DNA of 24,000 bases from Vibrio sp. VB16 (GCF_015594925.2 NZ_CP087590.1:3132270-3156269), one strand, 5' to 3'; positions 4,120-18,317 are shown, counted from the first letter of the stretch. Program-made: numbers and translations. Notes: generated from the letters alone by a model not told the origin.

Positions 4120-4173
4120 ATCGATTTCGGTCTAAGTGGATAAAAACTAAGCGCAAATGCCCTATAAAGCATC

Positions 4174-4202
4174 TAGACAGCATTGGTTACATCCCCTATA
4201 AT
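4174..4202 (+). promoter_or_regulatory. Candidate sigma-70 promoter of the tRNA gene
   Basis: TAGACA (4174-4179), exactly 17 nt of spacer, then TATAAT (4197-4202). The -10 element ends 14 nt before the first tRNA base. Confidence 0.5.
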
Positions 4203-4216
4203 CGTCAACCTAATTC

Positions 4217-4292
4217 GGCCCCTTAGCTCAGTGGTTAGAGCGCTCGACTCATAATCGATCGGTCCGCAGTTCAAGTCTGCGAGGGGCCACCA
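4217..4292 (+). tRNA. ileX: tRNA with CAU anticodon, most likely tRNA-Ile2 (lysidine-modified, ileX-type) rather than elongator tRNA-Met
   Basis: The 76-nt cloverleaf has acceptor GGCCCCT/AGGGGCC, D-arm GCTC-AGTGGTTA-GAGC, anticodon loop CTCATAA, T-arm CGCAG-TTCAAGT-CTGCG and an encoded CCA. The acceptor stem, D-arm and anticodon loop are near-identical to E. coli ileX as I recall it. E. coli ileX also lies downstream of rpoD. Confidence 0.9.
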
Positions 4293-4299
4293 AATTTTG

Positions 4300-4336
4300 A
4301 AGGTTAGTAAGCATAGTGCTCACTAACCTTTTTTTA
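4300..4336 (+). terminator. Rho-independent terminator after the tRNA
   Basis: A long stem pairs aaggttagt (4300-4308) with actaacctt (4322-4330), with additional inner pairs. A run of seven T residues follows. Confidence 0.8.
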
Positions 4337-4720
4337 TGCCTGTAGCTTTTCAGTCAAGTAGTTACACCAATCCGGAAAATTAACTGTACAGGTCAATCCA
4401 ACTTCTAAAGTCCATTTTTTGTAACTTTCTTTGAGTTTTCTAAAAAACAATGCGACTTCACTTAGTAATTAAGGCACGACAGAATCGCTTGGTAATCACA
4501 CAGGCATAAGCTTCTGACTAGGAAATATATCGCTGTCCAGCGTGAAAAAGTTCAAGACATTAGTGCCTCACCAAACCCTTGTTACCCGCGAGTAATATAG
4601 TAAAATCATTTACGACTTTTACCTTTGAATACCCATAGAAATGATTAAATATTTTCAAACCTCCACAGGTAAAACATATTCGATATATCACCACAAACAA
4701 GAATGGTTATCTTTGTTCCC

Positions 4721-5632: not shown

Positions 5633-5684
5633 CTGGCTTCTCCATTAAATGAATATCTGAGTATTTAAATATTACTGACCAATT

Positions 5685-5701
5685 ATTGTCTTTAAAGCAA
5701 T
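5685..5701. promoter_or_regulatory. Candidate LysR-type operator (dyad ATTG-N9-CAAT containing T-N11-A)
   Basis: The sequence attgtctttaaagcaat lies in the 232-bp divergent LysR/GST intergenic region. Its dyad arms are only 4 bp long, so chance occurrence in AT-rich DNA is plausible. Confidence 0.2.
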
Positions 5702-5864
5702 AGTGATTGGTATTTTTCCCCATATATAACCAAATTTAAACAAGTAATAATATATTAAACTGAAACATTGCAACCTTGAACTTGTTGCAACGTGTAAAGG
5801 CAAGGCGTTGATTAAGCTTTGTTGGCAAACAAGCCACCTTCACGTTTATGATGGAAACTGATTT

Positions 5865-6542
5865 ATGATGACTTTGCACGGTTTTGCCGCTAGCAACTAT
5901 TACAACCTAGTGAAACATGTACTCCTATACAAAGAACAGCCGTTTGAAGAAAACCTTATTTACGGTGGTAGTGATGAGTTACTGGCAATCAGCCCTGCTG
6001 GCAAAGTACCTGTGGTCACTACGTCAGAAGGCCTTCATATTTCAGAGTCCAGTGTGATTTGTGACTTCATTGAAGAGACGTACCCTATCACCCCGCTCTA
6101 CCCAGTAAATGCCACAGAACGTGCGGTTGTGCGTCAAATAATGAAAATAGCAGAGCTTTATTTTGAACTGCCAAGCAGACGACTAATACCTTATGCATTG
6201 TCAGGCACCGCAGCGCCTGACGCAGTTAAGGTTGAAGTTCGCCAAATATTAAACCGTGGAATTACGGCTTTAAATCGCTTGTGTCAGTTTTCACCTTGGA
6301 TAGCAGGTGAACAATTCACCATGGCTGACATCTACGTTTATTACGTAAATACAATAGTGAGCACCTTTGGCTCTAACCAACTTGATTGGGACATACTTGC
6401 TGAGGTTCCTGGAATGAAAGAGTGGAACGACTCAATGAGCCAGTCCACCATTGCCCAAAACGTAGAGGCAGATCGTCTAGCAAACATGTCCGAGTTTCTT
6501 CAAAAAGTAAAAGCTCAGTTTCAAGCAGCAAATACTGAATAA
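5865..6542 (+). CDS. Glutathione S-transferase family protein
   Basis: 225 aa. The N-terminal thioredoxin-like GST fold is readable (LHGFAASNYYNLVKHVLLYKEQPFEE ... SPAGKVPVV ... ISESSVICDFIEETYP), followed by a helical C-terminal domain. Tandem ATGs at 5865 and 5868 leave the start ambiguous by one codon. Confidence 0.8.
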   Translation: MMTLHGFAASNYYNLVKHVLLYKEQPFEENLIYGGSDELLAISPAGKVPVVTTSEGLHISESSVICDFIEETYPITPLYPVNATERAVVRQIMKIAELYFELPSRRLIPYALSGTAAPDAVKVEVRQILNRGITALNRLCQFSPWIAGEQFTMADIYVYYVNTIVSTFGSNQLDWDILAEVPGMKEWNDSMSQSTIAQNVEADRLANMSEFLQKVKAQFQAANTE

Positions 6543-6662
6543 CACTTAGCGATAAAAACAACCAATACTAAAACACTTACTTAGAGTCACTACAAACATA
6601 GCATGACCAATACAATAACGTTATAGGTTCAACTAATTAAGTTTTTGCAGGAGCAAAACAGC

Positions 6663-7790
6663 ATGAAAGATACTAACATTCAACTTATCTCTACAATCAC
6701 CGAAGACAATAAACTCACCATTGCGTTACAAAACATAGACATGCCACAACCTAGTGCCGATGAAGTTGTTATTCGTATTGAAGCGGCACCACTAAACCCG
6801 TCTGATTTAGGTGTTATGTTCACCGCTGCAGATATGACAACAGCAACTCAATCAGGCACCCAGAAAAACCCTATTATTACTGCAAATTTTCCAGCTCAGT
6901 TTATGTCATCGTTTAAATCTCGTGTGGGTAAAGCAACCCCTGTTGGCAATGAAGGTGCCGGAACCGTTGTAGCCGCGGGCTCATCATCTGCAGCACAAGC
7001 CCTAATGGGAAAAACCGTTGCAGTGATTGGTGGTGGTACATATCGTCAGTATATATGTGCCAATGTACAAAGCTGTTTAGAATTAAAAGAAGGTACTACA
7101 GCTAAAGAGGGCGCATCTTCTTTTGTTAACCCGCTGACAGCATTAGCGATGGTCGAAACCATGCGAGCTGAAGGTCATAAAGCCATCATTCATGCAGCGG
7201 CAGCGTCTAACCTTGGTCAAATGTTAAACCGCATCTGTATTGCCGATGGCATCGATTTAATTAACATTGTACGTAAAGCAGAACAAGAAACTCTGTTACG
7301 TGATGTAGGCGCAAAATATGTTGTTAACTCGAGTAGTGATACTTTCCTTGCAGATTTAACTGCAGCTATTATTGAAACGAGAGCAACGATTGCCTTTGAC
7401 CCAATTGGTGGTGGCCAATTAACAAGTGATATTCTTAACTGTATGGAAGTTGCTGCGGCTCGTGATATGAAGGAACACAGCATATATGGCTCTGACACAT
7501 TCAAACAAGTTTATATTTATGGCGCATTAGATCGCGGGCCTATTACACTAAATCGTAACTTCGGTTTTGCTTGGGGTGTAAACGGGTTCCTGTTATTCAA
7601 TGCACTAGGTAAACTAGGGACTAAAACGGTGATTGATATGCGTCAACGCGTTGCAGAAGAAATCAACACAACTTTTGCTAGCCACTACACTCATGAAGTT
7701 TCATTGGCAGAGGTCTTACAATTACCATCGATAGCCGCTTATTCTAAACAAGCTACAGGTGAGAAGTACTTAATTACACCTCAACAATAA
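6663..7790 (+). CDS. MDR-superfamily NAD(P)H-dependent oxidoreductase (quinone/enoyl reductase-like)
   Basis: Motifs ADEVVIRIEAAPLNPSDL, PVGNEGAGTVVAAGSS and the nucleotide-binding region HAAAASNLGQML are typical of zinc-independent MDR/QOR-like reductases. I prefer ATG 6663 because AGGAG at 6649-6653 sits 9 nt upstream. The ORF-track start at 6645 is a TTG with no RBS. Confidence 0.8.
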   Translation: MKDTNIQLISTITEDNKLTIALQNIDMPQPSADEVVIRIEAAPLNPSDLGVMFTAADMTTATQSGTQKNPIITANFPAQFMSSFKSRVGKATPVGNEGAGTVVAAGSSSAAQALMGKTVAVIGGGTYRQYICANVQSCLELKEGTTAKEGASSFVNPLTALAMVETMRAEGHKAIIHAAAASNLGQMLNRICIADGIDLINIVRKAEQETLLRDVGAKYVVNSSSDTFLADLTAAIIETRATIAFDPIGGGQLTSDILNCMEVAAARDMKEHSIYGSDTFKQVYIYGALDRGPITLNRNFGFAWGVNGFLLFNALGKLGTKTVIDMRQRVAEEINTTFASHYTHEVSLAEVLQLPSIAAYSKQATGEKYLITPQQ

Positions 7791-7821
7791 TGACGTATTA
7801 ACTGAGCGAATAAAAGTAGAG

Positions 7822-7858
7822 AACGATTATAGATCTCTACTTTTATTTGGTATACCAG
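7822..7858 (+). terminator. Rho-independent terminator after the MDR reductase gene
   Basis: A perfect 11-bp stem pairs aaaagtagaga (7822-7832) with tctctactttt (7844-7854). The T-run continues as ttttattt. Confidence 0.75.
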
Positions 7859-8147
7859 AGCGTTGGCTTTGAATTCAGGAGAATCGAGAATACTTTTCTT
7901 TATTGTTTGTCATGGTTTAACTCACTTAACGCAGTGTCCAAAACTACTGATTTAGACCAAAAAAGAAATAAGCCTATGATTAAAATCAATATTCCAATAC
8001 TTCCTTTTAAGTCTAAAAATTGAAACTCACGATAACTTTATTTAACGACATAAACATTGTGCGCGATCAAATTGCGCAAAACTCAAAATTGCTAAAATCA
8101 TGGTTTATATGACAAATATAACTAATTGTTTTTTAAGGAAATGAATA

Positions 8148-8717
8148 ATGAAATTGAGTCGACTTTTATCTACATTGGGCATTATTATCACAGCCAATGC
8201 AGTAGCAGACACGAAAGAGATAAACGGTGACACCTTCAGGTGTATTCAAGAGATGACGCCGGTGAAACATTTTTTTGTAGATAACCTTAATGGTCATATT
8301 GAAGCAACCAAACAAGTGGCGCTTTCAGATACCGGCGGTGTATACCCTGAAGGTTCAGTCGTTCAGTTGGTACCAACCGAGGTAATGATCAAAAGGGAAA
8401 AGGGCTATAGTCCGGCAACAAAAGACTGGGAGTTTATTGAGTTGGATGTATCAAAGCAAGGTTCGACAATCAGAGGAAGGGGATTTGTTGACGTAGTTAA
8501 TCGGTTTGGTGGTAACTGCTTTGCCTGCCACGTTAAGGCTAAACCTCAGTTTGATATGATATGTGAAAAAGATCACGGGTGTGATCCGATTCGTCTAACC
8601 GATACCATGATAACGGCCATTCAGAAGACCGATCCCCGTTGCACGCCAGTAACACTCTCTGAAGAGGAAAAACAGGCGTTAAAAGCGCTTCAGCAAGCAC
8701 TCGCTCCTGCTTCGTAG
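8148..8717 (+). CDS. Secreted mono-haem protein with a CXXCH motif, possibly cytochrome P460-like
   Basis: 189 aa with a Sec signal peptide (MKLSRLLSTLGIIITANAVA/DT) and a single CFACH haem-c motif at nt 8517-8531. The preceding segment YPEGSVVQLVP...KDWEFIELD...GGNCFACH resembles the cytochrome P460 family layout. The RBS AAGGAA sits 7 nt upstream. The family assignment is from memory, not a search. Confidence 0.55.
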   Translation: MKLSRLLSTLGIIITANAVADTKEINGDTFRCIQEMTPVKHFFVDNLNGHIEATKQVALSDTGGVYPEGSVVQLVPTEVMIKREKGYSPATKDWEFIELDVSKQGSTIRGRGFVDVVNRFGGNCFACHVKAKPQFDMICEKDHGCDPIRLTDTMITAIQKTDPRCTPVTLSEEEKQALKALQQALAPAS

Positions 8718-8875
8718 AGACCTTGTAAATGATTAAATTGTACGCATGACTATGATCTACTCTCTATGGCATTGAGCAATCCTAAAGAGATGCTCAGGCA
8801 ATGCAACCAATCCAGAACAGCTATTTGCCACAGGCGACATCGCAATAGACACGTTAACAAAAATAAGGGCAATTT

Positions 8876-9805
8876 ATGCGCGCAGTAAGAATTCACCAAT
8901 ATGGCGGCACTGATACATTAACGTTAGAGCAGGTCGATACACCAACGATAAATGCTGATGATATTCTCATTCAAATAAAGGCCGCCGCAATCAATCCCGT
9001 TGATTGGAAAATCCGTGAGGGCTATTTACAAGATTTCATTCCATACGCACTGCCTATTACACTTGGTTGGGATGTCGCAGGTATCGTTACCCAAGTGGGC
9101 AAAAATGTCAGTCAATTCTCAATAGGTAACGAGGTATTTAGCCGACCAGATATTGCGCGTGATGGCAGCTATGCTGATTTCATCGCCGTCAAAGCAGACG
9201 AAGCCGTGCTGAAATCAACCAAGCTCGACTTTGCACAAGCAGCGGCCCTACCACTTGCAGGCATTACTGCGTGGCAATGTCTTGTGGATGTTGCCAATAT
9301 TCAAACGGGTCAACGCGTACTTATCCATGCAGGTGCGGGTGGTGTAGGCCACCTAGCGATTCAAATAGCAAAAGCAAAAGGCGCGACGGTCATTGCAACC
9401 GCATCTTCAGCTAATTTGGAACTTCTGACTCAGTTTGGTGCTGATGAAGCGATTGATTACGCAAAAGCACCATTAGGTGAACAAATTGCACCAGTAGATG
9501 TAGTGCTTGATACCATGGGTGGAGACGTACAACAATCGTCCTGGTCTCTGCTTAAGCCAGAAGGCATGATGGTTTCAGTCGCCGAGCCACCAAGTGAAGA
9601 AACAGCAAAAGAGCACAACGTACAAGCTGCATTCGTCTTCATAGAGCCAAGTAGCCGTATACTGACTGAACTCAATACGCTCGTCGAGTCCGACCAACTT
9701 CGCCCATTGATTGAGCATCATTTCCCATTAGAAAAAATTGCTGAAGCACACCAACAAAGCCAATCAGGTCGTACTCGCGGTAAAATTGTAATCGACGTCA
9801 GCTAA
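8876..9805 (+). CDS. NADPH:quinone oxidoreductase-like MDR protein (Qor family)
   Basis: 309 aa. Readable segments are MRAVRIHQYGGTDTLTLEQVDTPTINADDILIQIKAAAINPVDWKIREG, the GAGGVGHLAIQIAKAKGA Rossmann motif and the C-terminal SGRTRGKIVI, all typical of the Qor/zeta-crystallin subgroup. Confidence 0.85.
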   Translation: MRAVRIHQYGGTDTLTLEQVDTPTINADDILIQIKAAAINPVDWKIREGYLQDFIPYALPITLGWDVAGIVTQVGKNVSQFSIGNEVFSRPDIARDGSYADFIAVKADEAVLKSTKLDFAQAAALPLAGITAWQCLVDVANIQTGQRVLIHAGAGGVGHLAIQIAKAKGATVIATASSANLELLTQFGADEAIDYAKAPLGEQIAPVDVVLDTMGGDVQQSSWSLLKPEGMMVSVAEPPSEETAKEHNVQAAFVFIEPSSRILTELNTLVESDQLRPLIEHHFPLEKIAEAHQQSQSGRTRGKIVIDVS

Positions 9806-9841
9806 AAAGATGTCGATAAGCTTCGTAAGGTTATGTTTTTT

Positions 9842-9876
9842 TACCCAAGTTGCTTATGTAACTTGGGTATTTTTAT
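9842..9876 (+). terminator. Rho-independent terminator after the qor-like gene
   Basis: A perfect 10-bp stem pairs tacccaagtt (9842-9851) with aacttgggta (9860-9869), followed by tttttat. Confidence 0.8.
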
Positions 9877-10068
9877 CTTCAAGCTTTATAGATTCAGATT
9901 CAGGATACGCAAATCGATTTCTGAAAACATATGTAATAGGGACATATACCCTAAAAAACCAAGTTAGCTATGCATTCCCACACTCGAGTGGAATGAGCAA
10001 TAAAACTCGAAAGGTAACTAATTAGCAATATGAATGCAGTGGAGCAGACATCTATGGGCAAGGATGTC

Positions 10069-10857
10069 TTAAGCGACACTTTCAATATCTTGATAGTATT
10101 TGATAGTTTTGAGCTTCAATTCTTGTTGTGCATATTGGTCGGCGACAATAATAGCGTGTCTGTGTAATTGAAGAGCGGTGACTGTCCATATATGAGTAAT
10201 GTTACCTTCTACGGCATGTTGGACAGCAAGCGCTTTGTTATGACCAGAAGCAAGAATCATCACTTCTTTTGCAGACAACAACGTAGCCACACCGATCGTT
10301 AATGCATAATCAGGGACGTTATTTACATCATTGTCAAAGAAACGTGAGTTCGCTTCTTTTGTAGAATGCGTCAGTTTCATCGATCGAGTAAGGGAAGACA
10401 ACGATGAGCCAGCCTCGTTGAAAGCAATATGACCATCAACGCCTACGCCGCCAAGGAAAAGGTCGATTCCGCCAAATGATTGAATTTTGTCTTCATACGC
10501 AGAGCATTCCGCTGCTAGATCAACCGCATTGCCGTTAAGAAGGTGAATGTTTTCTTCCTTGATATCAATGTTGTTAAACAAGTTATTGTACATAAATGAA
10601 TGATATGACTCAGGGTGTTCTTGTGGCAACCCAACATACTCATCCATGTTAAAGGTAACGACATTTTCAAAACTGATTTCACCCGCTTTAAATAAATCAA
10701 TTAGGCAACGATAGGTAGCTAAAGGTGTTCCTCCGGTTGGAAGCCCTAATACAAAGGGGCGTTCAGGGGTTGGGCCGAATTCATTGATTTTGTTAATAAT
10801 ATAAAGAGCGGACCATTGAGCAACCTGCTCACCGCTGTCTAAAGGAATAAATCTCAT
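10069..10857 (-). CDS. nagB: Glucosamine-6-phosphate deaminase (NagB type I), last gene of the php/yhf-like operon
   Basis: 262 aa, collinear with E. coli NagB. Shared segments include MRFIPL...[13 protein letters not shown]...[24 protein letters not shown]...[18 protein letters not shown]...[22 protein letters not shown]. The catalytic Asp (NMDEY) and His (GHIAFNE) are retained. Its start lies 2 nt after the upstream gene's stop codon. Confidence 0.93.
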
Positions 10858-10859
10858 TG

Positions 10860-12074
10860 TTACGCCTCAATTAAATTTGGTAGAAATGAAGAGCCATATT
10901 GTGGCGGTTGAGCATTAAAAAAATCACAGGCGGTTGCGCCAATATCCGCGAGTGTTGTTCGTTCGCCCAAGTTTCGGTGATGTAATCCTGATTTGTAAAC
11001 GAGCAGTGGCACATACTCACGAGTGTGTTTGGAGTGCCCTATGCATGGGTCATTCCCGTGATCAGCTGTGACGATCAACAGATCGTCGTCTGCCATGAGA
11101 TCGATGATTTTACTTAATCCCAAGTCTGCCCGTTCTAATGTATGCCAATATAAATCTGGATTTTGTTTGTGCCCAGAGAGATCAGTTTCCTGAACATTGA
11201 TACAAAAGAACCCCTGCGAATTGCTTTGTATTGCCTTGAGACTTGTCGAGAAAACATCGTCAGTATCAACGATCTTGTCATGGCTTATGCCATGCGGATT
11301 TTGTACGATATCGGCCACTTTTCCGACAAGCGTCGTTTTAATATTTTGTTGATGAAGCATCTCTGGTGCTTGGACCAGATGATCGACACCATAGCCAAGA
11401 TGAACGACCTGAAACCCATGGTCGTAAGCGCCAGATTTGGGTGCATTGATGCCGATGCATTGCCCTTTAACTTCGATAGCTTTAATTAAATTTTGGTTGG
11501 AATCTAAATAGCCACCAAATACCACATTTCTGGCAACATAGCTGTTATCTCTCACTACCTTGCCTAATACTTGCAGCGCTTCAAAGCTTATGTGATTGAA
11601 ATTAGCCGTCACATTATAGACCTGCCCTAACTCTGCTTCCAAGTTATCACCGACCGCAACGCAACCATCAACAAGCAGCAGTTCAGCACCCTGTCTAGCG
11701 ATTCGTTCAACGACGTATCCTTCGCAGACGAGTGCTTTTTCGACCTGGTCAATGGCATGGAAAAAGGGTTTTACCAATGGGGATTTCGGTTTCGTCCCCA
11801 TTAATTCCTGATGGCCAGCGAAGGTGTCACAACCTTCGTGTTTTAGTTGAATTTTCCCTGTATTGGCACCTTGTGAAAATGGAATAGAGGAACAACGACA
11901 TTGAACAATATTGTTGAGCCCTAGCTTACCTAATGTTGGCAAATTTTTTGTCGAAAAGGCAGACAACAGTTTATGCGCTGTATTCGCCCCAATATCTTGA
12001 GGTCTAGACGTTTTGACATCAGGCATCTCACCAATACCAAACCCGTCAAGCACCACCACAATAAACCTACGCAT
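10860..12074 (-). CDS. yhfW: Phosphopentomutase-like metalloenzyme (alkaline-phosphatase superfamily phosphomutase), YhfW homolog
   Basis: 404 aa, against about 408 aa for E. coli YhfW. It has metal/nucleophile motifs like those of DeoB: [34 protein letters not shown] and [13 protein letters not shown]. It overlaps the upstream yhfX-like gene by 8 nt (ATGCGTAG). Confidence 0.85.
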
Positions 12075-13206
12075 TAATGGGATCGCCTAAAGCCGTGTAG
12101 CGCCCAATAATTTTAGGTGAACCTGTTTGGATACCATCAACAAGAACCACATCCGATCGCGTAACAAAGATTTGAGTTCTGAATGCCATAATGACAGGTG
12201 AACCAATAGCGTGTTTTCCTGCTAACTTTAGGTGGTAGTCGATTGAGCTTGGTTCATCATTGGAGACCAACACCTTCTCACCATTTACAAGTGCTTTATT
12301 TAAGTGCCCACGGCGATAATACCCACCAGCAAAACAGTATGAATCGTCGACATAGTGATGTGAAACCTCCGACAAATACAACATCGCAATTTTTTCAGGT
12401 TGAGACCCGTCTGCATTAGCAGGAAACGTGCCTGTGAGTGCGTGTCCTGGTTCACCGTGAGTCCCGCCAAAGCCATGAATCATAGGAAGCGTTTCACAAC
12501 ACGTTGCCGATGGAATATTCATTTGATTCAATTGGATAGAGCTAGGCCAATTTTTCTTTACATTAAGTAATGTTTTCAAATTATTGGTCGGCTTAACACT
12601 TTTACCATCATGTAAAAAGCAAGGAAAATGAGTGATCCCCTCTATTATGAGGCCGTCCAATTTGCTTAATTTAGCAAGAACATCTGACATAGTTGACAAT
12701 GAGAAGCCAGATTCTTGGTTGATGTAGAGCAAGTCATCTTTGTCATAAAATTTGACGAGAATACGTTGCTTAACATTTAGCTCACTCGCAATTTTGGAGA
12801 TGGATTGCGCTTTTTCCAAGGAATATACGGTGATGACTTCGGGTTGTATATCACGAATAATTTCCCGCAACATACTCTCTGGTGGTTGGACAAGGTGACC
12901 AATATGGCTGATCTTGATTCCAGATTTATGAAGCACTCGTGCCTCTTTAAAATCAACGGCAACCACGCCTTCAAACCCCATATCCTCTAATAGCTTAGCC
13001 AAGTACGGGTTCCTGCCAAACTGTTTTGTCATGCTGTACAGTTTGATGTCCAACGCATCGGCTTTTTGTTTGATTTTTAAAGCATTATTTATAAATTGTT
13101 CTACATCAATGATGTATGAATCGGGCAATAATTCGCCGTTAGCATGCAAAGCAATAGCCGCATTAATTAACGAAGAATTTTGTTTTTCAAGGGCGTCTAA
13201 AAACAT
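12067..13206 (-). CDS. yhfX: Alanine-racemase-fold (fold-type III PLP) protein, YhfX homolog
   Basis: 379 aa. The N-terminus MFLDALEKQNSSLINAAIALHANGELLPDSYIIDVEQ... and the segment YSMTKQFGRNPYLAKLL (putative PLP lysine) match my recollection of E. coli YhfX. The gene sits in synteny with the yhfW-like gene. Confidence 0.8.
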   Translation of the reverse strand: MFLDALEKQNSSLINAAIALHANGELLPDSYIIDVEQFINNALKIKQKADALDIKLYSMTKQFGRNPYLAKLLEDMGFEGVVAVDFKEARVLHKSGIKISHIGHLVQPPESMLREIIRDIQPEVITVYSLEKAQSISKIASELNVKQRILVKFYDKDDLLYINQESGFSLSTMSDVLAKLSKLDGLIIEGITHFPCFLHDGKSVKPTNNLKTLLNVKKNWPSSIQLNQMNIPSATCCETLPMIHGFGGTHGEPGHALTGTFPANADGSQPEKIAMLYLSEVSHHYVDDSYCFAGGYYRRGHLNKALVNGEKVLVSNDEPSSIDYHLKLAGKHAIGSPVIMAFRTQIFVTRSDVVLVDGIQTGSPKIIGRYTALGDPINA

Positions 13207-13222
13207 CAGTCACTTACCATTA

Positions 13223-13250
13223 ATTCAATATCTTGAATATTTTGAATATT
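13223..13250. promoter_or_regulatory. Palindrome ATTCAA-tatc-TTGAAT overlapping a perfect tandem TTGAATATT x2, just upstream of the yhfX-like start
   Basis: ATTCAA at 13223-13228 and TTGAAT at 13233-13238 form the dyad. TTGAATATT is repeated head-to-tail at 13233-13241 and 13242-13250. The element lies 17-44 nt upstream of the start codon at 13206 on the minus strand. Its function is unknown; it may be an operator or an internal promoter element. Confidence 0.3.
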
Positions 13251-13325
13251 TACAATGTAAAAAATAGGCACTTAATTTAGTAAAATAGAATAGGGGTGGC
13301 TAAGTAAGAAGCTATTCTTAATGTT

Positions 13326-13354
13326 CATGGAACGATACTAGGTACCGTTCCATG
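13326..13354 (-). other. Intra-operon RNA hairpin directly after the yhfT-like stop codon
   Basis: A perfect 9-bp stem pairs catggaacg (13326-13334) with cgttccatg (13346-13354) around an 11-nt loop. No U-run follows on the minus strand, so it is more likely a partial terminator, a processing site or a stability element than a full terminator. Confidence 0.45.
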
Positions 13355-13367
13355 ACTTATTTACGTT

Positions 13368-14672
13368 TTATGCCGGAATATACAAACCCACGACAAACAA
13401 AATATTCAATAAAATACCAGTAAGAATCGCGGCTACCGCTGGTGACGCAATCTTTAACACTGGACGACCTAGAACTTCATTTAAGTAGTAAAGTATGGCG
13501 AATATAGTGAACCCAGTGGTTCCCCCCATTTTCATTACCGCCAAGACACCACCAATGAGTAAGGCAAATTCCATTAAGGTATTCATACTGTCACGAATAT
13601 TGTCCGAAGCATTACGGATAGAAGGGAAATGCTCTAGGTAACGACCTATGCTACGGAGTAACATAATCTCCAAACAAATAGTCACCGCACCCAATGCCGC
13701 AGCAATTGGAACGTTAGGGGCCAAGTAACCAACAACAAAAACAAAGGTAAACCCAACCACACCATAGACACCAGTAGCTAAAGCAGTGGTTGCAATGAGA
13801 GGAATAAACCCTAGTCCACGCATAAACTCGGACAAAGCAACTTGGTTTATTGCTTCTTTCTGAGCAACAACATCATCTAATTTATACGCATCCGCTAAAG
13901 AATAGATAGAGACTTCTGAACCCGCGAAAATACCAGAGGCTGCCGCTGCAGAGATCAATGCTCCCGTCACCGCCAAATAAGGCATGTTTTTGTAGATACG
14001 TTTACTGCGTTCTTCAAACAGGCCTCGTATACCACTCATATCTGGAGGCATAATGCCGTTAGCTTTGTCTTGCATATCTTTGCGAACAGCGATTCCAACA
14101 AGCAAAACCATACCCACGAAGATTTGAATGGACTCAGGATAGATCCCTGTATATTTTATGATCAATAGGCGAGAGACCAATATTACGAGGGCTGATATTG
14201 CACCTGCTTTCCATCCAAATTGATAAAAAATAGCAAGTAGTGGAAAGAGCGCAAATGCCGACATTACTGGTGTTCCAAGTTCACCTAAAGCCCCTAAAGC
14301 GTCAATAGGCAAACCAGTCAACACGGTATTTACCGCTGCAAGACTCGTTACCACTAAGACTCCCCAAACGGCACCACCAAGGGCGGCAATAATCCGGCTT
14401 CCAACCATCACACCGATAATGTCCGTAGGAAGAAAAAGTAACCAAGGGTTCAACAACCCGGTGGATAGTGTAAAAGATATACCTACTGAGGCCACAAAAC
14501 CGATAGATAAGCCAAAAGCAACAGAGCCTGCATCACGGCGGTTCATGTTTCCTTCAATTACTTGTGGCAAGATTGGGCGTATACCATCATGAAATACGGC
14601 CGCTGACATGTTCGCTAGTAAGGCTGTCATTGCACACAAAGATGCAATCAAAGCAACATTCATAATGTCCAT
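13368..14672 (-). CDS. yhfT: Polytopic inner-membrane protein (putative transporter), YhfT homolog
   Basis: 434 aa, the same length as E. coli YhfT. It is hydrophobic throughout with about 10-12 predicted helices. Its start is 1 nt after the yhfU-like stop codon. Confidence 0.8.
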   Translation of the reverse strand: MDIMNVALIASLCAMTALLANMSAAVFHDGIRPILPQVIEGNMNRRDAGSVAFGLSIGFVASVGISFTLSTGLLNPWLLFLPTDIIGVMVGSRIIAALGGAVWGVLVVTSLAAVNTVLTGLPIDALGALGELGTPVMSAFALFPLLAIFYQFGWKAGAISALVILVSRLLIIKYTGIYPESIQIFVGMVLLVGIAVRKDMQDKANGIMPPDMSGIRGLFEERSKRIYKNMPYLAVTGALISAAAASGIFAGSEVSIYSLADAYKLDDVVAQKEAINQVALSEFMRGLGFIPLIATTALATGVYGVVGFTFVFVVGYLAPNVPIAAALGAVTICLEIMLLRSIGRYLEHFPSIRNASDNIRDSMNTLMEFALLIGGVLAVMKMGGTTGFTIFAILYYLNEVLGRPVLKIASPAVAAILTGILLNILFVVGLYIPA

Positions 14673-14673
14673 T

Positions 14674-15036
14674 TTAAGCCTCTTTCGCTAACAGAGTAAC
14701 AAGCATAGGAATCGCATGTTCTACGTGTTCAATGGATACCCCAAATGCCTTTTTTCCTTCACTAAGGAACTGTATGATTTGGTCTTCTTTAGCTCTAAAT
14801 GCTGGCTTTGCTATTGTGCAGGACTCATTAAAACCAATGAGGGCAATAGCCATACTTAAAGCTGCACCAGCACCTGTATTGCAAGCACCGATGTAATAAT
14901 CCAACTCCCCAGATTTCACTTTCATAGCGGCGTCCATATCATTTAAAATATGACACTCAAATACACCAGGCACAGTTCGTTCAATTTGTTCTTTTATTTG
15001 TTCGCGCTGTAATCCAGCTATCGCAATTTTTTTCAT
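14674..15036 (-). CDS. yhfU: DUF2620-type small cytoplasmic protein, YhfU homolog
   Basis: 120 aa, against 117 aa for E. coli YhfU. It has an alternating beta/alpha pattern with a conserved-looking DYYIGACNTGAGAALS loop, and it sits between the php and yhfT homologs. Confidence 0.75.
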   Translation of the reverse strand: MKKIAIAGLQREQIKEQIERTVPGVFECHILNDMDAAMKVKSGELDYYIGACNTGAGAALSMAIALIGFNESCTIAKPAFRAKEDQIIQFLSEGKKAFGVSIEHVEHAIPMLVTLLAKEA

Positions 15037-15065
15037 AATAATTTCTCTATATTTTTGTCATTCAT

Positions 15066-15950
15066 TCATTTGATCTTAAAAAAACGAGCAGGATTATTTT
15101 TAAGCATCATCTCAATTTGAACTTCGCTAATCCCTTGGTCCAATAATTTCGGTACAAATGATTCGATCAGATAGGCAAAACCTAACCCGTCATTAGCTTT
15201 GAGATGTGAACGTCTAGTGATATCCATCGATAACATCAATTGCTTCACGTAACCTCGATTAATAAGCCCTACAATCACCTCTACTCGTTTGGAATCAGGG
15301 TAATAGGAATTTTTTCCTATCGTATCTATTTGCACATAACATCCTTGTTCAAGCAGCCATATCAGATCATCAAAATTGTCCCTTAGATCACAATGGCCAA
15401 TGGTTACATTACTTAAGTTCACCCCATTTTCTCGTAGTAAAGTCGCCTGTTGTCGACCCATGGTACTAAAGGAGGTATGAGTCGAAATTGGACATCCTGT
15501 TTGCAAATGAGCAATAGCAGCAGCCTTAAACACCTTTTGCTCTGTTTTGGTAAACACATCTTTACTGCTGCCTATTTCACCAATCAAAGAAGCTTTTAGA
15601 GACGAACCTTCAATGCCACTTTCAATTTCAGCTATCATGGTTTGAGCTATATCTTCGACTGACATCGAATCAAGATACTCTGGAAAAAAGCCTTCCATGT
15701 AATAGCCTGTTGACATCAAAATGTTCATACCAGTGTCTTTGATTAAACCTTCAATAAAATGAGGATTTCTTCCCATAAAAAAATTGGTTACTTCGATAAT
15801 GTTACAAACCCCAATTTTTTTAAGTTCTAATAATTCCTGTTTAATCGGTTCATATTGATCCAACTTACAATCGATATCTTGTTTTTGTACTGATAGGTCT
15901 ATATGCAAGTGCTCATGGCAGTATGTAAAACCATTACTATTATCCGGCAT
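15066..15950 (-). CDS. php: Phosphotriesterase homology protein (amidohydrolase superfamily, binuclear metal centre)
   Basis: 294 aa, collinear with E. coli Php (292 aa). Shared segments are YCHEHLHIDLS, NIIEVTN..MGRNP, GEIGSS, PISTHTSFSTMG, TIGHCDL, DTIGKNSYYPD and LSMDITRRSHLKAN. All metal-ligand positions (HxH, H, H, D) are present. Confidence 0.93.
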   Translation of the reverse strand: MPDNSNGFTYCHEHLHIDLSVQKQDIDCKLDQYEPIKQELLELKKIGVCNIIEVTNFFMGRNPHFIEGLIKDTGMNILMSTGYYMEGFFPEYLDSMSVEDIAQTMIAEIESGIEGSSLKASLIGEIGSSKDVFTKTEQKVFKAAAIAHLQTGCPISTHTSFSTMGRQQATLLRENGVNLSNVTIGHCDLRDNFDDLIWLLEQGCYVQIDTIGKNSYYPDSKRVEVIVGLINRGYVKQLMLSMDITRRSHLKANDGLGFAYLIESFVPKLLDQGISEVQIEMMLKNNPARFFKIK

Positions 15951-15952
15951 CG

Positions 15953-16321
15953 TTACACCTTATTTCGTCTATTTTCACAAAGTGACGCTAAATTAAAAAT
16001 GAAAAAACTATTTTCCTCGATTGGTGCATTTTCCAATTTCATGAGTGTACAGACTTTGTTATTCATATCGATAATCCCTGCGTAATTCTCACATGCCTTG
16101 ATTTCTACCATGAACTCTTCGTCTAAACCTTGTGCCACTGATTCATTTGACCTTATTCTGTCTGCCGCTCTTGCTAAGTGAGTCATCGCGATTTGATATT
16201 GGTCATCCTCTGGATTCAAGCCCCATTCTTTATTCAAATGTGCTACAACCGACTGCACCCCATCATATGCATCTTGCGAAATTACATTTGAATTTAGCAA
16301 GATTAGCATCCTTTCCTTCAT
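15953..16321 (-). CDS. yhfY: Stand-alone PRD (PTS regulation domain) protein, YhfY homolog
   Basis: 122 aa. The segment YQIAMTHLARAADRIRSNE resembles the conserved His-containing helix of PRD domains. Size and position (between the yhfZ-like gene and the enzymes) match E. coli YhfY at about 120 aa. Confidence 0.7.
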   Translation of the reverse strand: MKERMLILLNSNVISQDAYDGVQSVVAHLNKEWGLNPEDDQYQIAMTHLARAADRIRSNESVAQGLDEEFMVEIKACENYAGIIDMNNKVCTLMKLENAPIEENSFFIFNLASLCENRRNKV

Positions 16322-16330
16322 TGTATTCCC

Positions 16331-17236
16331 TCAATAAGTTGGCACTATTTTTCCTGATATCACTTGATTTTGGTGATCTAATATCTCAGGAATATTAATA
16401 ATATTGGTTAACATCGTTTTTAAATAACGTGAATTCTTTCGCACCATAAGCACCCCTATAGATGCTTTAGAAAAATCAGCTTCTTTATCTAAAGGTGCTT
16501 CACATAATCCGAGAGATTCTATTGAATCTTGTCTTGATGCGTACCAGATTGCTGCGTCTATTTCACCATCTGAAATCTTTTTAAGACATTCATTATACGG
16601 AGTCGAAATCACTTCTATATCATCGTTCTGATAGTACATTTCTGTTAACAGCTTCTGATCAGGAGATTCAGGGTCGACTCCAACACGTCTAATTGTACCT
16701 TTCTCTCCTAGTCGATATATCAATCGATGCTCAGGAACATAACTATGAATACCAAGTTCAATGGCGATATCCAACTCCCCTTCAGCTATATACTTTTCAG
16801 AAGCCAACTTAGACATAATTGCAATGTCATAAACACCATTTTTTAAACATTCCGCTCTAACACCCGCGCCTCTCATATGAGCAAAATAGAGTGGTACTGT
16901 CAGTATCTGTTGCTTTAGTCCCGACGCAAGGCCTTCATAATGTTTTGTATAAGGCAATGGCATCGCACAAACGATATTTCCAATATCTGAAAGCTCAACT
17001 AAACACTTATAATCTAGAGCAGAAATAATAGTACCATTACGTCCTTGTCTGCTTAGGTGTACGGCATTTTCATTCTCAATGTGCTTTATTGCTTTTGCTA
17101 CATAACCTACAGAACAACCAATTTCTTCAGATAGTTCATCGATAGTTTTTAATCTATCACTGACTTTTGTAGTGAGCAGGTAACGAGCAATTTGAATTAT
17201 CGCTGTCCCATTTTTTTTAATATAATTAGTTGTCAT
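16331..17236 (-). CDS. yhfZ: Transcriptional regulator with an N-terminal winged-HTH and a periplasmic-binding-protein-like (type 2) sensor domain, YhfZ homolog
   Basis: 301 aa, the same length as E. coli YhfZ. The HTH is LKTIDELSEEIGCSVGYVAKAIKHIENENAVHLSRQGRNGT. The C-terminal part has PBP2-like patterns (DIAIMSKL, RRVGVDPESPDQ, DGEIDAAIW). It is the first gene of the operon. Confidence 0.75.
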   Translation of the reverse strand: MTTNYIKKNGTAIIQIARYLLTTKVSDRLKTIDELSEEIGCSVGYVAKAIKHIENENAVHLSRQGRNGTIISALDYKCLVELSDIGNIVCAMPLPYTKHYEGLASGLKQQILTVPLYFAHMRGAGVRAECLKNGVYDIAIMSKLASEKYIAEGELDIAIELGIHSYVPEHRLIYRLGEKGTIRRVGVDPESPDQKLLTEMYYQNDDIEVISTPYNECLKKISDGEIDAAIWYASRQDSIESLGLCEAPLDKEADFSKASIGVLMVRKNSRYLKTMLTNIINIPEILDHQNQVISGKIVPTY

Positions 17237-17303
17237 TTTTAATATTCATTTTTTTGAGGATTTAATCCTAATTGAAAAGTTGAGTTAAAAAAGTATGGTT
17301 GAT

Positions 17304-17318
17304 CACATTTTCAAAATG
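17304..17318. promoter_or_regulatory. Perfect 15-bp palindrome ACATTTT-C-AAAATGT in the yhfZ-like promoter region (candidate operator)
   Basis: 7-bp arms with no mismatches, 68-82 nt upstream of the yhfZ-like start at 17236. A second dyad, AGGATT-T-AATCCT, lies at 17257-17269. AT-rich composition raises the chance expectation somewhat. Confidence 0.3.
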
Positions 17319-17485
17319 TATATTTAACGAACAACACATTCCAACCAGATAAGATTAAGGTTATTCATAGAAAGTGGATTGAATAATTCATGATAAATGC
17401 GCATAAACACGACTTATTTTTGTTGTTTATAGGGGCAACTATAAGTAGTGTGAATCCAATCCCCATAATTGATACAAGGAAGAGC

Positions 17486-17704
17486 ATGCGTAAGTCATTA
17501 AGAGATAAAGTCATAACTATATGCAACAAAAAGATCGAGCAAAAAGGGGATGTTGTGGGTGTTTCATTTTATGCCTTCTTTGCCAATAAAAATGATGACC
17601 CAGAGTTACTTATGGAAGCAGCTACATGGTGGATTAAAACCCATAAACTAAACCATTTCGAAAAAGCCAACAAAATCATTGCGATGGTTGAATCAGGTCA
17701 ATAA
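17486..17704 (+). CDS. Small hypothetical protein (72 aa from ATG 17486, or 104 aa if the ATG at 17390 is used)
   Basis: ATG 17486 has AGGAAG 5 nt upstream, whereas ATG 17390 has no clear RBS. I recognise no family. Coding status rests only on ORF length and the RBS. Confidence 0.4.
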   Translation: MRKSLRDKVITICNKKIEQKGDVVGVSFYAFFANKNDDPELLMEAATWWIKTHKLNHFEKANKIIAMVESGQ

Positions 17705-17783
17705 TGATTTTTAATTTTCAATGTATGCATAATTCAATACAATACGTTTGATATTATTAGAAAAGTTCAGAATCAGGAAGAAA

Positions 17784-18317
17784 ATGAAACACCACCAAGG
17801 TTTCACACTTATAGAGCTTGTCGTCGTTATTGTCATACTCGGTATTCTTGCCGTTGTCGCCGCACCAAGATTTTTAAACCTTCAAACTGAAGCACGAATA
17901 GCTAGCGTACAAGCGTTAACTGGTGCATTAAATTCAGGGGCCTCATTGGTTCATTCCAAAGCGGCAGTCGATGGTTTAAATACAGGCAATGCCGAGCTTG
18001 ATGTGAACGGTGACGGTACAGAAGATATTTCGTTGCGAGCAGGGTACCCACGAGTAAAATCAGATTGCGCGAATTTCATAGAGGACATGGGGTATTGGGT
18101 TTCTCTCGATTTTAGCCTTAGCTGTAATACCGACGACGATTCGGATTGGTATGGCTACGCGAGTCAGAATATATTCTATTTTCTACCGAGTGGGTTTTCT
18201 AGTATCGATGAACAGTGTTACGTGACGTATACAACCGCCTCTGAATATGACAGCACTTCTGGAACGTGGGTAGATACTAGTTCCGCCACTATTATATCCA
18301 CTACTGATGGTTGCTAG
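17784..18317 (+). CDS. Type IV pilin of the MSHA (MshA-like) family with a prepilin N-terminal cleavage/methylation motif
   Basis: From ATG 17784 (RBS AGGAAG) the protein reads MKHHQG/FTLIELVVVIVILGILAVVAAPRFLNLQTEAR. This is a short leader ending in Gly, then Phe+1 and Glu+5, nearly the same as the conserved MshA-family N-terminal helix. The C-terminal domain is variable with 4 Cys. The ORF-track start at 17748 is a TTG extension. Confidence 0.88.
   Translation: MKHHQGFTLIELVVVIVILGILAVVAAPRFLNLQTEARIASVQALTGALNSGASLVHSKAAVDGLNTGNAELDVNGDGTEDISLRAGYPRVKSDCANFIEDMGYWVSLDFSLSCNTDDDSDWYGYASQNIFYFLPSGFSSIDEQCYVTYTTASEYDSTSGTWVDTSSATIISTTDGC

Follow-up and report, generated by a model that had tools for sequence, protein, structure and literature searches.

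What compound does the yhf/php gene cluster act on, and does a nagB gene found at its end belong to the pathway? These questions are raised by a locus of Vibrio sp. VB16, which we analyzed within a window of 24,000 nucleotides (the whole stretch of DNA under study). No functional assignment for the yhf/php cluster was found in the searchable literature, in agreement with the earlier note on this DNA, which held that no pathway had been assigned.

Gene content of the locus

ORF calling placed eight tightly packed minus-strand genes at 10069-17236, with successive spacings from yhfZ to nagB of 9, 2, 29, 1, 161, −8, and 2 nt, exactly as first described. Seven of the eight are full-length orthologues of Escherichia coli YhfZ, YhfY, Php, YhfU, YhfT, YhfX, and YhfW (30–72% identity), and the eighth is NagB. 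With all seven E. coli proteins matched and the active sites intact, the assignment to the yhf/php family holds. The features are as follows.

16331..17236, minus strand: yhfZ, GntR-type wHTH regulator with a periplasmic-binding-protein-like sensor domain (Pfam, NCBIfam)
15953..16321, minus strand: yhfY-like gene, small PRD-like protein of 122 aa (E. coli YhfY homology, family HMM)
15066..15950, minus strand: php, PTE/PTER-family binuclear-metal hydrolase (Pfam PTE, E 3.9e-95)
14674..15036, minus strand: yhfU (DUF2620), RpiB/LacAB-like Rossmann domain (Pfam DUF2620, E 1.4e-47; AF2 model)
13368..14672, minus strand: yhfT, polytopic membrane protein, presumed permease (Pfam YhfT, E 1.7e-154)
13312..13354, minus strand: RNA hairpin with a 14-bp stem, directly 3′ of the yhfT stop, within the 161-nt gap
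12067..13206, minus strand: yhfX, fold-type III (alanine-racemase-fold) PLP enzyme (Pfam Ala_racemase_N and YhfX-like_C)
10860..12074, minus strand: yhfW, phosphopentomutase-like phosphomutase of the alkaline-phosphatase superfamily (Pfam Metalloenzyme, PRK12383)
10069..10857, minus strand: nagB paralogue, glucosamine-6-phosphate deaminase family (TIGR00502)
9842..9869, no strand assigned: palindromic hairpin ~200 nt downstream of nagB

The hairpin behind yhfT appears in the MFE structure as well as in the centroid (gap z-score −2.8) and is kept in Vibrio sp. F74; it has no U-tract 3′ of the stem and was not called in the terminator scan. The hairpin downstream of nagB carries a T-run on the plus strand only. 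It reads as the terminator of the convergent plus-strand gene and is likely the 3′ limit of the yhf operon transcript.

The gene order had been regarded as a rearrangement relative to E. coli. Of 41 Vibrionaceae-type loci, 33 have Z-Y-php-U-T-X-W, the standard order. E. coli does have the arrangement Z-Y-X-W-php-U-T-S, but frl genes, said to lie next to it, did not adjoin the cluster in the strain examined. Similarly, yhfS is indeed missing from the window, but its absence is normal, the gene being confined to some Enterobacteriaceae and Firmicutes. In Yersinia clusters yhfW is missing, and both X and W are absent from a short Z-P-U-T form; the pathway is therefore modular.

The two presumed regulatory genes differ in how directly they can be classified. 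YhfZ matches Pfam HTH_41 (E 8e-16) and YhfZ_C (E 8.6e-72), scores 352 bits against NCBIfam YhfZ_full (NF041241; cut-off 260), and has 45% full-length identity to E. coli YhfZ, as expected of the wHTH/PBP-like regulator originally proposed. The YhfY-like protein retains the conserved motif MAMTHLARA and 30% identity to E. coli YhfY (E 1e-13). Its description as a stand-alone PRD protein is not supported by a significant direct Pfam match (E 0.028, 15 bits versus a cut-off of 23), but stands through homology: the YhfY family HMM picks up Firmicute YhfY proteins (E 3e-23 to 5e-8), and the PRD label follows because these proteins carry precomputed PRD hits.

A separate NagB paralogue adjoining yhfW

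The product of nagB, which starts 2 nt after yhfW, passes TIGR00502 (409 bits, cut-off 237), as do the linked NagBs of Bacillus and Clostridium ultunense; it falls under the strict NCBI equivalog NF001685 (407 versus a cut-off of 513). The catalytic and phosphate-binding residues D72, D141, H143, E148, R172, and K208 are intact, in agreement with the intact catalytic Asp and His of the earlier note, and the same holds for every linked NagB paralogue examined. The allosteric site is altered (K160 to M, T161 to K). Among four Vibrio paralogue lineages, Lys160 is replaced in three and Thr161 in all, which would fit a deaminase no longer responsive to GlcNAc-6-P. More broadly, the linked NagBs have altered residues around positions 149–161.

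The window NagB has one 98% twin, and every other relative is at most 69% identical. It shares 66–68% identity with housekeeping Vibrio NagB, whereas the housekeeping proteins are 91–97% identical among themselves. A separate clade (bootstrap 93%) unites the five yhf-linked NagBs of Vibrio, with 68–78% identity among the Vibrio proteins and 36–48% among others. V. comitans has both forms, a housekeeping NagB of 266 aa (P0344) and a yhf-linked NagB of 263 aa (P0149).

The window, F74, and one metagenome lineage (L082) share the layout Z-Y-P-U-T-X-W-N (P, php; N, nagB). In V. aestuarianus (L085), T-U-P-Z and Y-X-W-N are divergent, and V. comitans (L086) has Z-P-[sulfatase, maturase]-Y-X-W-N-U-T. 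Throughout these three Vibrio-type layouts, yhfW and nagB are −4 to +4 nt apart. Beyond Vibrio, short-type NagBs that are 30–43% identical to the Vibrio linked proteins follow yhfW in Bacillus sp. 37MA (gap 47 nt), a gut-metagenome lineage (21 nt), L110 (15 nt), and C. ultunense, where nagB comes after HPr; an HPr gene is present twice among such loci. In L099, NagB stands at the head of the yhf cluster. A NagB paralogue is thus repeatedly recruited directly after yhfW, across phyla, and in a small Vibrio sub-lineage the cluster is extended by a non-housekeeping NagB that is translationally coupled to yhfW.

The link is a minority feature, present in one lineage among 80 species-representative genome-contig loci in an unbiased survey (one of ~60 gamma-proteobacterial lineages) and in 7/64 YhfW lineages when all sets are combined; therefore, most yhf clusters use the housekeeping NagB or need none. 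Its rarity in gamma-proteobacteria would suit an incidental adjacency, in which an ordinary GlcNAc-pathway deaminase, or a hitch-hiker, is next to the yhf genes by chance. So would the end of VB16/F74 synteny exactly at the nagB stop codon, beside a variable region, and the integrase and transposase genes that flank some linked clusters. However, the linked clade is distinct from housekeeping Vibrio NagB, V. comitans keeps both copies, and ordinary nagB adjoins nagA and nagC. Moreover, the tight coupling to yhfW survives three rearrangements, including one that places nagB between W and U-T, and Firmicutes and metagenome lineages show this arrangement too. We regard an incidental nagB as very improbable. 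Judged by sequence, nagB appears to be a dedicated operon member and not the housekeeping gene. The separate clade, the two copies in V. comitans, and the recurrence across phyla bear out the suggestion that the nagB linkage is a real clue to function.

Enzymes, permease, and phosphate source

Php shares 54% identity with its E. coli counterpart, matches PDB 1BF6/4LEF at E 1e-107, and retains all six metal ligands (H12, H14, E125, H158, H186, and D243), as had been claimed; its score lies under the NCBI equivalog cut-off (429 versus 486). PDB 9efa (PTER) also matches (E 3e-28), and characterized relatives nearer to Php include phospho-sugar (phospho-furanose) lactonases. The hydrolytic or deacylating role suggested for Php has a precedent in mammalian PTER, which hydrolyzes N-acetyltaurine as an amidohydrolase (PMC11374699).

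The yhfX and yhfW genes overlap by 8 nt. YhfX is 50% identical to its E. coli counterpart (PDB 4KBX, E 8e-120), and all 79 family members share its K61. YhfW scores 560 bits against PRK12383 (cut-off 254) and 150 against deoB TIGR01696 (cut-off 341). Aligned with Bacillus cereus PPM (3M8W), the core domain alone aligns, the cap region 101–246 remaining unaligned. The nucleophile T84 is Thr in 70 of 73 members and Ser in the other three, and the metal ligands D10, D298/H302, D338/H339, and H350 are all invariant, so that the description of a DeoB-like mutase with intact nucleophile and metal motifs is accurate. The genomic partner of YhfW is always YhfX, as an adjacent pair.

YhfT is 61% identical to E. 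coli YhfT. Its AF2 model is all-helical (pLDDT 84.7) and matched no PDB fold significantly, solved EIIC and transporter folds included (best E 0.08, TM ≤0.2). YhfU, which the earlier note had treated simply as an uptake component, gave a different picture. Its AF2 model (pLDDT 95.3, pTM 0.89) has an RpiB/LacAB-like fold: type-B ribose-5-P isomerases account for every one of the best 23 Foldseek matches in the PDB (E 1.7e-4 to 6e-3, TM 0.53–0.68). C52, G55, and G57 are invariant across 68 diverse sequences, in the motif C-N-T/S-G-x-G. The predicted RpiB-like fold of DUF2620 with its invariant Cys is new here.

YhfU could accordingly be a soluble RpiB-like aldose-ketose isomerase acting on a sugar-phosphate intermediate, rather than a partner of YhfT in transport or phosphate transfer; two isomerization steps (YhfU and NagB) and phosphate from a kinase encoded elsewhere would then be implied. 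The RpiB catalytic motif is CGTG, and in YhfU the invariant Cys52 with Thr/Ser54 forms a similar C-x-T/S-G at the end of β-strand 3; a weak HMM hit (E 0.4) goes with this comparison. The structural matches point the same way, and PTS IIB is absent from the top 50 fold matches. In contrast, YhfU is ~30 residues shorter than RpiB, and where RpiB has its Asp-His pair after strand 1, YhfU has Gly8, which is invariant, and Leu9, which is nearly so. The yhfU gene lies immediately upstream of yhfT in 82 of 82 sources tabulated, even where the pair sits apart from the enzymes, and a YhfT-YhfU fusion protein exists (P0120). HPr genes in relatives' clusters also speak against an isomerase, which we consider unlikely.

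Three observations accord with the PTS-like phosphate source proposed earlier. HPr genes lie inside two Firmicute yhf clusters, YhfY is PRD-like, and Lac/Cel-family IIB-IIC-IIA genes with DUF7916 adjoin 12–17 of ~45 Vibrionaceae and Fusobacteria loci; within the window, no PTS or HPr gene was found near the cluster.

A proposed pathway and its known counterparts

Building on the gene content, orthology, intact catalytic residues, and separate NagB paralogue, we infer a substrate class, enzyme roles, an order of steps, and PTS involvement in VB16. The operon is probably, with appreciable room for doubt, a PTS-linked catabolic operon for an amino-sugar derivative that ends in GlcN-6-P to Fru-6-P, the Vibrionaceae form of yhf/php with a dedicated NagB. 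YhfZ, through its ligand-binding domain, and the PRD-like YhfY, with PTS input, would set expression. A nitrogen-containing sugar derivative would enter via YhfT with its obligate partner YhfU and be phosphorylated at PTS expense. The PTER-like Php would then hydrolyze the phosphorylated compound, by N-deacylation or by lactone or ester opening, to give a free amine. Rearrangement at the amine-bearing carbon and a shift of the phosphate, carried out by YhfX and YhfW, would yield a 2-amino-2-deoxy-aldose 6-phosphate, most simply GlcN-6-P, which NagB would convert to fructose-6-P and ammonium. Several points count against this scheme: making GlcN-6-P from an N-acetyl-hexosamine phosphate does not obviously need either a PLP enzyme or a mutase, and the YhfU model resembles an isomerase (RpiB), unlike any known PTS IIB. 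The rarity of the NagB link, the modular make-up of the clusters, the lack of a PTS or HPr gene near the cluster in the window, and the failure of YhfT to match a solved transporter fold weigh on the same side.

The cluster might instead degrade a nitrogen-containing compound other than a glucosamine derivative, such as a phosphorylated amino-aldonate or lactone, a mannosamine-, galactosamine-, or allosamine-type hexosamine, or an amino-acid–sugar conjugate, the linked NagBs having shifted specificity or serving only a side branch. Fold-type III PLP enzymes include D-serine dehydratases and D-threonine aldolases, whose substrates are β-hydroxy amino acids, and the Cys/Met-family PLP enzyme (YhfS) and amidase-like protein added in fuller Firmicute clusters suggest a conjugate with an amino-acid part. 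The fast evolution of the linked NagBs, their changes around residues 149–161, the sub-cut-off NF001685 score, and the lactonases near Php are also consistent with another substrate. Nevertheless, the intact GlcN-6-P deaminase residues and the TIGR00502 matches argue for the canonical activity, which is also the simplest account of such divergent NagBs recurring after yhfW. We therefore rate a non-glucosamine substrate as rather unlikely. Because the nagB link recurs in distant bacteria, it provides a first concrete clue that the orphan yhf/php pathway breaks down an amino-sugar-like compound.

The closest known system, the E. coli cluster with its Php and YhfX structures, has the seven orthologues in the same Pfam/NCBIfam families and the same tight one-strand organization. 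The Vibrio operon differs in placing php-U-T ahead of X-W, in lacking yhfS, and in the NagB paralogue after yhfW. YhfW shares with the phosphopentomutase DeoB the catalytic core, Thr nucleophile, and Mn ligands, but falls far under the deoB equivalog cut-off, has a cap (substrate) domain that does not align, and is partnered with YhfX rather than deo genes.

In the ula system for L-ascorbate, a PTS permease is followed by a lactonase acting on the phosphorylated substrate and by sugar-phosphate rearrangements. The proposed yhf layout is analogous, with a membrane permease and small soluble partner, a metallohydrolase for a phosphorylated substrate, and entry into central metabolism through isomerase or mutase steps. 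The two systems are unrelated in sequence and fold: YhfT matched no solved transporter, and UlaG has a metallo-β-lactamase fold whereas Php is a TIM-barrel amidohydrolase. The nag regulon likewise ends in a NagB-family enzyme with identical catalytic residues, and the logic proposed here would also be to deacylate and then deaminate to Fru-6-P. Unlike it, the yhf operon lacks NagA, NagC, and NagE, uses a PTE/PTER-type hydrolase, has a NagB of a separate clade with a changed allosteric site, and adds a PLP enzyme and a phosphomutase that the nag pathway does not need.

Finally, Php shares its branch of the PTE family with mammalian PTER, which also acts on N-acetyl-β-alanine (PMC11374699, PMC13311154). 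In both, one of the metal ligands is a Glu (E169 in the PTER paper, E125 in the window). PTER is a eukaryotic enzyme with an additional helical insertion and lies outside any operon; it shows that the PTE branch to which Php belongs can hydrolyze N-acetyl amides of small anionic amines.

Gene content and order of the yhf/php cluster

ORF calling in the window gave exactly the eight co-directional minus-strand genes of the earlier note, with the same spacings of 9, 2, 29, 1, 161, −8 and 2 nt. The proposed orthology with E. coli yhf/php was borne out by BLASTP, which returned full-length matches at 30 to 72% identity against the annotated E. coli yhfZ-Y-X-W-php-U-T-S genes; the YhfZ, YhfY, YhfX, YhfW, Php, YhfU and YhfT orthologues are contiguous and run in one direction. 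The cluster lies downstream of dnaG-rpoD and a small variable region, and a sigma-54 two-component system adjoins it.

Genes of the cluster (10069-17236) and their family assignments
yhfZ, minus strand, Pfam HTH_41 and YhfZ_C
yhfY, minus strand, 122 aa, without a significant direct Pfam or NCBIfam match
php, minus strand, Pfam PTE
yhfU, minus strand, Pfam DUF2620
yhfT, minus strand, Pfam YhfT family
yhfX, minus strand, Pfam Ala_racemase_N and YhfX-like_C
yhfW, minus strand, Pfam Metalloenzyme and model PRK12383
nagB, minus strand, TIGR00502

The description of YhfY as a stand-alone PRD protein holds by homology and not by direct match. Window YhfY matches Pfam PRD weakly and below threshold (E = 0.028; 15.2 bits, cut-off 23; E. 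coli YhfY, E = 0.012), and Firmicute YhfY homologues with recorded PRD matches are tied to the window family by HMM (E = 1e-9 to 3e-23).

Gene order was surveyed in one genome per species by a YhfT-alignment search; the best 80 of 156 confirmed loci (numbered L) were taken, and their ORFs were labelled with the window and E. coli proteins. Below, single letters denote the yhf genes, P php and N nagB. The order Z-Y-php-U-T-X-W was found in 33 of 41 loci (L002-L042), which include Vibrio, Photobacterium, Thaumasiovibrio, one Aeromonas and a Fusobacteriaceae MAG. The Enterobacterales order is Z-Y-X-W-php-U-T, and among the best 80 of the 156 loci yhfS follows the cluster only in the group with Escherichia, Klebsiella, Citrobacter, Buttiauxella and Enterobacter. 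The difference from E. coli that had been claimed is therefore real, the window cluster having Z-Y-php-U-T-X-W and no yhfS in place of Z-Y-X-W-php-U-T-S. However, because the former order is common and yhfS is restricted, the rearrangement and the missing yhfS are clade-level norms; as a special trait of this locus the rearrangement is ruled out, being the standard Vibrionaceae order.

In the surveyed loci, yhfU directly precedes yhfT, and yhfX directly precedes yhfW in all loci that have both. Yersinia clusters mostly have no yhfW (Z-Y-X-php-U-T in L045, L047-L051, L068 and L072; Y. nurmii, L054, retains it), so that Yersinia would either do without the mutase step or rely on a mutase encoded elsewhere. 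In several Photobacterium genomes there is also a short second copy, yhfZ-php-yhfU-yhfT, without yhfY, yhfX and yhfW (L013/L032, L015/L034, L025/L033, L036); it lies some 12 kb away from the full cluster and is divergent from PTS/DUF7916 genes, which suggests that php-U-T is a self-sufficient module. Overall, the cluster ranges over Enterobacterales, Vibrionaceae, Firmicutes, Fusobacteria and Actinobacteria; the Firmicute and Actinobacterial layout, from contigs examined after a divergent DUF2620 query, is Z-Y-U-T-P-(S)-(amidase-like)-X-W.

A NagB paralogue next to yhfW

Among the best 80 of the 156 loci, the sole one with nagB after yhfW is that of Vibrio sp. F74, a strain very close to VB16. 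Taken alone, this would suggest chance, but a search from the NagB side altered the picture: three of the best matches, of 261 to 265 aa, turned out to be yhf-linked, and a 267-aa match of similar score belongs to an ordinary nagB-nagA-nagC locus.

Layouts of clusters with a linked NagB
metagenomic lineage, Z-Y-P-U-T-X-W-N
V. aestuarianus, T-U-P-Z divergent from Y-X-W-N
V. comitans, Z-P-[sulfatase, radical-SAM maturase, 229-aa protein]-Y-X-W-N-U-T

In every linked Vibrio-type case the nagB start lies −4 to +4 nt from the end of yhfW. Synteny between VB16 and F74 is lost precisely at the stop codon of nagB (window 4338-10067 against 14624-17811 of the F74 locus, L002), which places nagB within the conserved yhf block. 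Beyond the break, F74 has a gene for a 418-aa Cys/Met-metabolism PLP enzyme, co-directional with nagB, and in VB16 there are genes for a LysR regulator, a GST, two Zn-dehydrogenase-like genes and the following secreted protein.

8148-8717, plus strand, 189-aa protein with a signal-peptide-like N-terminus and a CFACH (CxxCH haem-binding-like) motif; no Pfam match

The window NagB passes the nagB equivalog TIGR00502 (408.8 bits, cut-off 236.9) and falls below the stricter NF001685 (406.9 against 513). Its closest relatives form a 98% twin cluster (VB16, F74 and DW001), with all other proteins in the NagB search at 69% identity or less. It shares 66 to 68% identity with the housekeeping clade of 266-aa Vibrio enzymes and lies outside that clade, whose members are mutually 91 to 97% identical, Halioticoli-clade relatives of VB16 included. 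In a neighbour-joining tree, five linked NagBs form one clade (93% bootstrap) outside the housekeeping Vibrio and Pasteurellaceae clades. V. comitans encodes both types; VB16 was not found among members of the housekeeping NagB clusters examined. The low identity, the separate clade and the two V. comitans copies rule out that the window gene is the housekeeping nagB. Together with the close yhfW spacing kept through rearrangements, the separate clade upholds the earlier claim that nagB is a genuine member of the cluster, and an incidental adjacency is now unlikely.

In the window NagB and three other linked Vibrio paralogues, the catalytic residues Asp72, Asp141, His143 and Glu148 and the phosphate-binding Arg172 and Lys208 (E. 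coli numbering) are kept. The GlcNAc-6-P allosteric site of E. coli NagB includes Arg158, Lys160 and Thr161; the window protein keeps R158 and has M for K160 and K for T161, so that the full E. coli-type set is absent. Two other linked Vibrio paralogues have V for K160; across the linked Vibrio NagBs, all four lineages have a substitution at Thr161 and three of them also at Lys160, and the C-termini are shorter. A rival explanation is that the cluster handles a different nitrogenous substrate and that NagB has shifted in specificity; the sequence divergence would be compatible with such a shift, and the retained catalytic and phosphate-binding residues speak for the canonical reaction.

Linkage also recurs in other phyla, with further cases coming from a metagenome scan with a YhfW alignment.

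Linked genes outside the Vibrio-type loci
Bacillus sp. 37MA, cluster followed by a 248-aa NagB (TIGR00502, 314 bits), then a HisJ-type phosphatase
Clostridium ultunense, cluster followed by HPr, a 257-aa NagB (273 bits) and a Cof-type HAD phosphatase
Alicyclobacillus-like contig, cluster followed by HPr
human-gut lineage (L102-L108, L114), NagB 21 nt after yhfW
L110, NagB after yhfW with a 15-nt gap
L099, NagB at the head of the cluster

The non-Vibrio linked NagBs are only 30 to 48% identical to one another and to the Vibrio linked NagBs, so the association is either very old or arose several times. The neighbourhood survey that had been called for thus gave recurrence across phyla at a low frequency: among loci with visible downstream sequence, NagB lies within 500 nt after yhfW in only 7 of 64 YhfW lineages (grouped at 85% identity), a sample biased because some loci were found via NagB or DUF2620. 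The nagB linkage is a recurrent minority variant.

The Y-X-W-N unit of V. aestuarianus and V. comitans stands apart from Z-P, which divides the cluster into two modules, (Z)-P-U-T and (Y)-X-W-(N). In the window, the 161-nt yhfT-yhfX gap is the only sizeable gap in the cluster.

Elements of the yhfT-yhfX gap
13312-13354, minus strand, strong hairpin with a 14-bp stem directly 3′ of the yhfT stop, without a U-tract; kept in Vibrio sp. F74
13223-13238, perfect palindrome ATTCAATATCTTGAAT, about 15 nt upstream of the yhfX start and overlapped by a degenerate repeat

The hairpin may serve RNA processing or stability, or may terminate transcription partially and so fix the relative output of the two modules. 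The palindrome was rejected as a shared operator, having no second copy upstream of yhfZ and no more matches in the window than expected by chance. Pattern scans for promoters and terminators returned no more sites than in shuffled sequence and did not define transcription units.

Predicted activities and PTS neighbours

The active-site residues listed in the earlier note for Php, YhfW and NagB were all confirmed. Php belongs to the TIM-barrel amidohydrolase family (Pfam PTE, E = 3.9e-95) with its binuclear-metal set present (H12, H14, the bridging E125, H158, H186 and D243), and scores below the NCBI Php equivalog cut-off (428.7 against 486). Among its relatives of known structure are E. coli Php and, in eukaryotes, PTER, for which N-acetyltaurine amidohydrolase activity was demonstrated in 2024 (PMC11374699); amide hydrolysis thus has a precedent in this branch. 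Taken with the present work, the PTER results suggest that bacterial Php may be an N-deacylase and not a phosphotriesterase or lactonase. In YhfX, Lys61 is invariant across the family alignment. YhfW fails the deoB equivalog TIGR01696 (149.9, cut-off 341.2) and NF003766 (180 against 256), and passes the YhfW-type model PRK12383 (560 against 254). Aligned to B. cereus phosphopentomutase (3M8W), it has the Thr nucleophile and the alkaline-phosphatase-core metal ligands; D10, T/S84, D298, H302, D338, H339 and H350 are kept throughout the 73 family members compared.

For YhfU, DUF2620 is the sole Pfam match, with no membership in LacAB_rpiB found, and a profile search against the PDB gave insignificant RpiB matches (E = 0.36 to 0.43) and a spurious designed-repeat match; the fold assignment therefore needed an AF2 model. 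In Foldseek, the top 23 PDB matches of this model (pLDDT 95.3, from a 68-sequence alignment) are all type-B ribose-5-phosphate isomerases (E = 1.7e-4 to 6e-3). An invariant Cys52, in the motif C-N-T/S-G-x-G, ends strand 3 (residues 47-52), at the place corresponding to the catalytic Cys of RpiB in its CGTG motif. By this model, DUF2620 is predicted to have an RpiB-like fold, newly assigned here. Fold and Cys would also suit a rival explanation in which YhfU is a soluble isomerase and not a transport partner; a natural fusion of YhfT and DUF2620 in a single polypeptide (P0120, metagenomic, 556 aa) favors a partnership. The AF2 model of YhfT itself (mea2fa1ab69ea, 13368-14672; all-helical, pLDDT 84.7) gave no significant Foldseek PDB match (best E = 0.08), and no similarity to solved EIIC structures was found; YhfT may have a permease fold without a solved representative.

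The window contains no EI, HPr, IIA, IIB or IIC component of a PTS. Elsewhere, HPr genes occur in two Firmicute yhf clusters, and a complete Lac/Cel-family PTS with a DUF7916 protein adjoins the cluster in 12 to 17 Vibrionaceae and Fusobacteria loci (among them L003, L004, L007, L013, L015, L026, L032-L036 and L042). In V. ezurae and V. halioticoli the PTS is co-directional with the cluster, with a porin gene between them. DUF7916 had no informative PDB sequence match. In Vibrionaceae and Fusobacteria loci this PTS and a chitin-binding-type secreted protein are the commonest neighbours; the latter, present in 14 loci, is encoded after yhfW in one Aeromonas and many Photobacterium clusters, and sequence searches of Pfam and the PDB gave no match for its conserved N-terminal domain of about 300 aa. 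The V. comitans insert hints at a sulfated substrate in that species. Cof-type HAD phosphatases often adjoin the Firmicute and Fusobacterial clusters.

Neighbouring and inserted genes in surveyed loci
L003 3127-6015, Lac/Cel-family PTS (IIB 107 aa, IIC 441 aa, IIA 112 aa) and DUF7916 protein (296 aa)
L007 13942-16125 and 13 other loci (e.g. L013, L029, L031, L038), secreted protein of about 731 aa with a C-terminal chitin-binding-type CBM5/12 module
L086/L087 (V. comitans) 3096-6804, sulfatase, radical-SAM/SPASM maturase and 229-aa protein between php and yhfY
L092 12824-13879, L094 12846-13889 and L079 11347-12378 (Firmicute/Fusobacterial), amidase-signature-like protein of about 345-350 aa between yhfS and yhfX
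L093 15341-16468, unannotated 375-aa protein of some Firmicute/Fusobacterial clusters

A proposed amino-sugar pathway

The evidence best supports reading the cluster as a catabolic operon, linked to the PTS, for an amino-sugar derivative. The compound would be taken up by YhfT with YhfU, phosphorylated via the PTS, hydrolyzed by Php (by deacylation, or by ring or ester opening) and rearranged by the invariant YhfX-YhfW pair; NagB would then deaminate the resulting 2-amino-aldose 6-phosphate to fructose-6-P. The hand-off from YhfW to NagB is the firmest inference, because the two genes stay tightly coupled in rearranged clusters and in different phyla; the model is at its weakest on which substrate is used and on what reaction YhfX carries out.

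We give a low probability to a more specific joint reading. Here a new PTS-dependent uptake route, with YhfT as a new permease fold and RpiB-fold YhfU as its Cys-phosphorylated IIB-like partner, would feed a new amino-sugar pathway in which the PTER-like hydrolase deacylates a phosphorylated N-acyl amino sugar, the fold-type III PLP enzyme epimerizes the amine-bearing carbon, and the DeoB-like mutase delivers GlcN-6-P to a dedicated, non-allosteric NagB. To our knowledge, such an epimerization by a PLP enzyme is a reaction type not known for amino sugars.

The yhf/php genes are among the larger gene blocks of E. coli without an assigned function, though crystal structures exist for two of their proteins. 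In keeping with the earlier note, the searchable literature, subscription-only papers aside, yielded no functional assignment for the cluster, and no mention of its link to NagB or HPr; in one paper the genes are simply listed. The repeated attachment of a dedicated GlcN-6-P deaminase to yhfW, with HPr alongside in some genomes, narrows the search to phosphorylated amino-sugar derivatives, and the nagB link names the likely end product, so that the pathway becomes directly testable. The finding is not spectacular in itself; its value is that it turns a long-standing "y-gene" block into a testable pathway. Set against known systems, YhfW has the same nucleophile and metal core as the phosphopentomutase DeoB but scores below the deoB models, and the locus as a whole is a member of the known orphan yhf/php family, in the Vibrionaceae gene order, which the added NagB paralogue makes a new variant.
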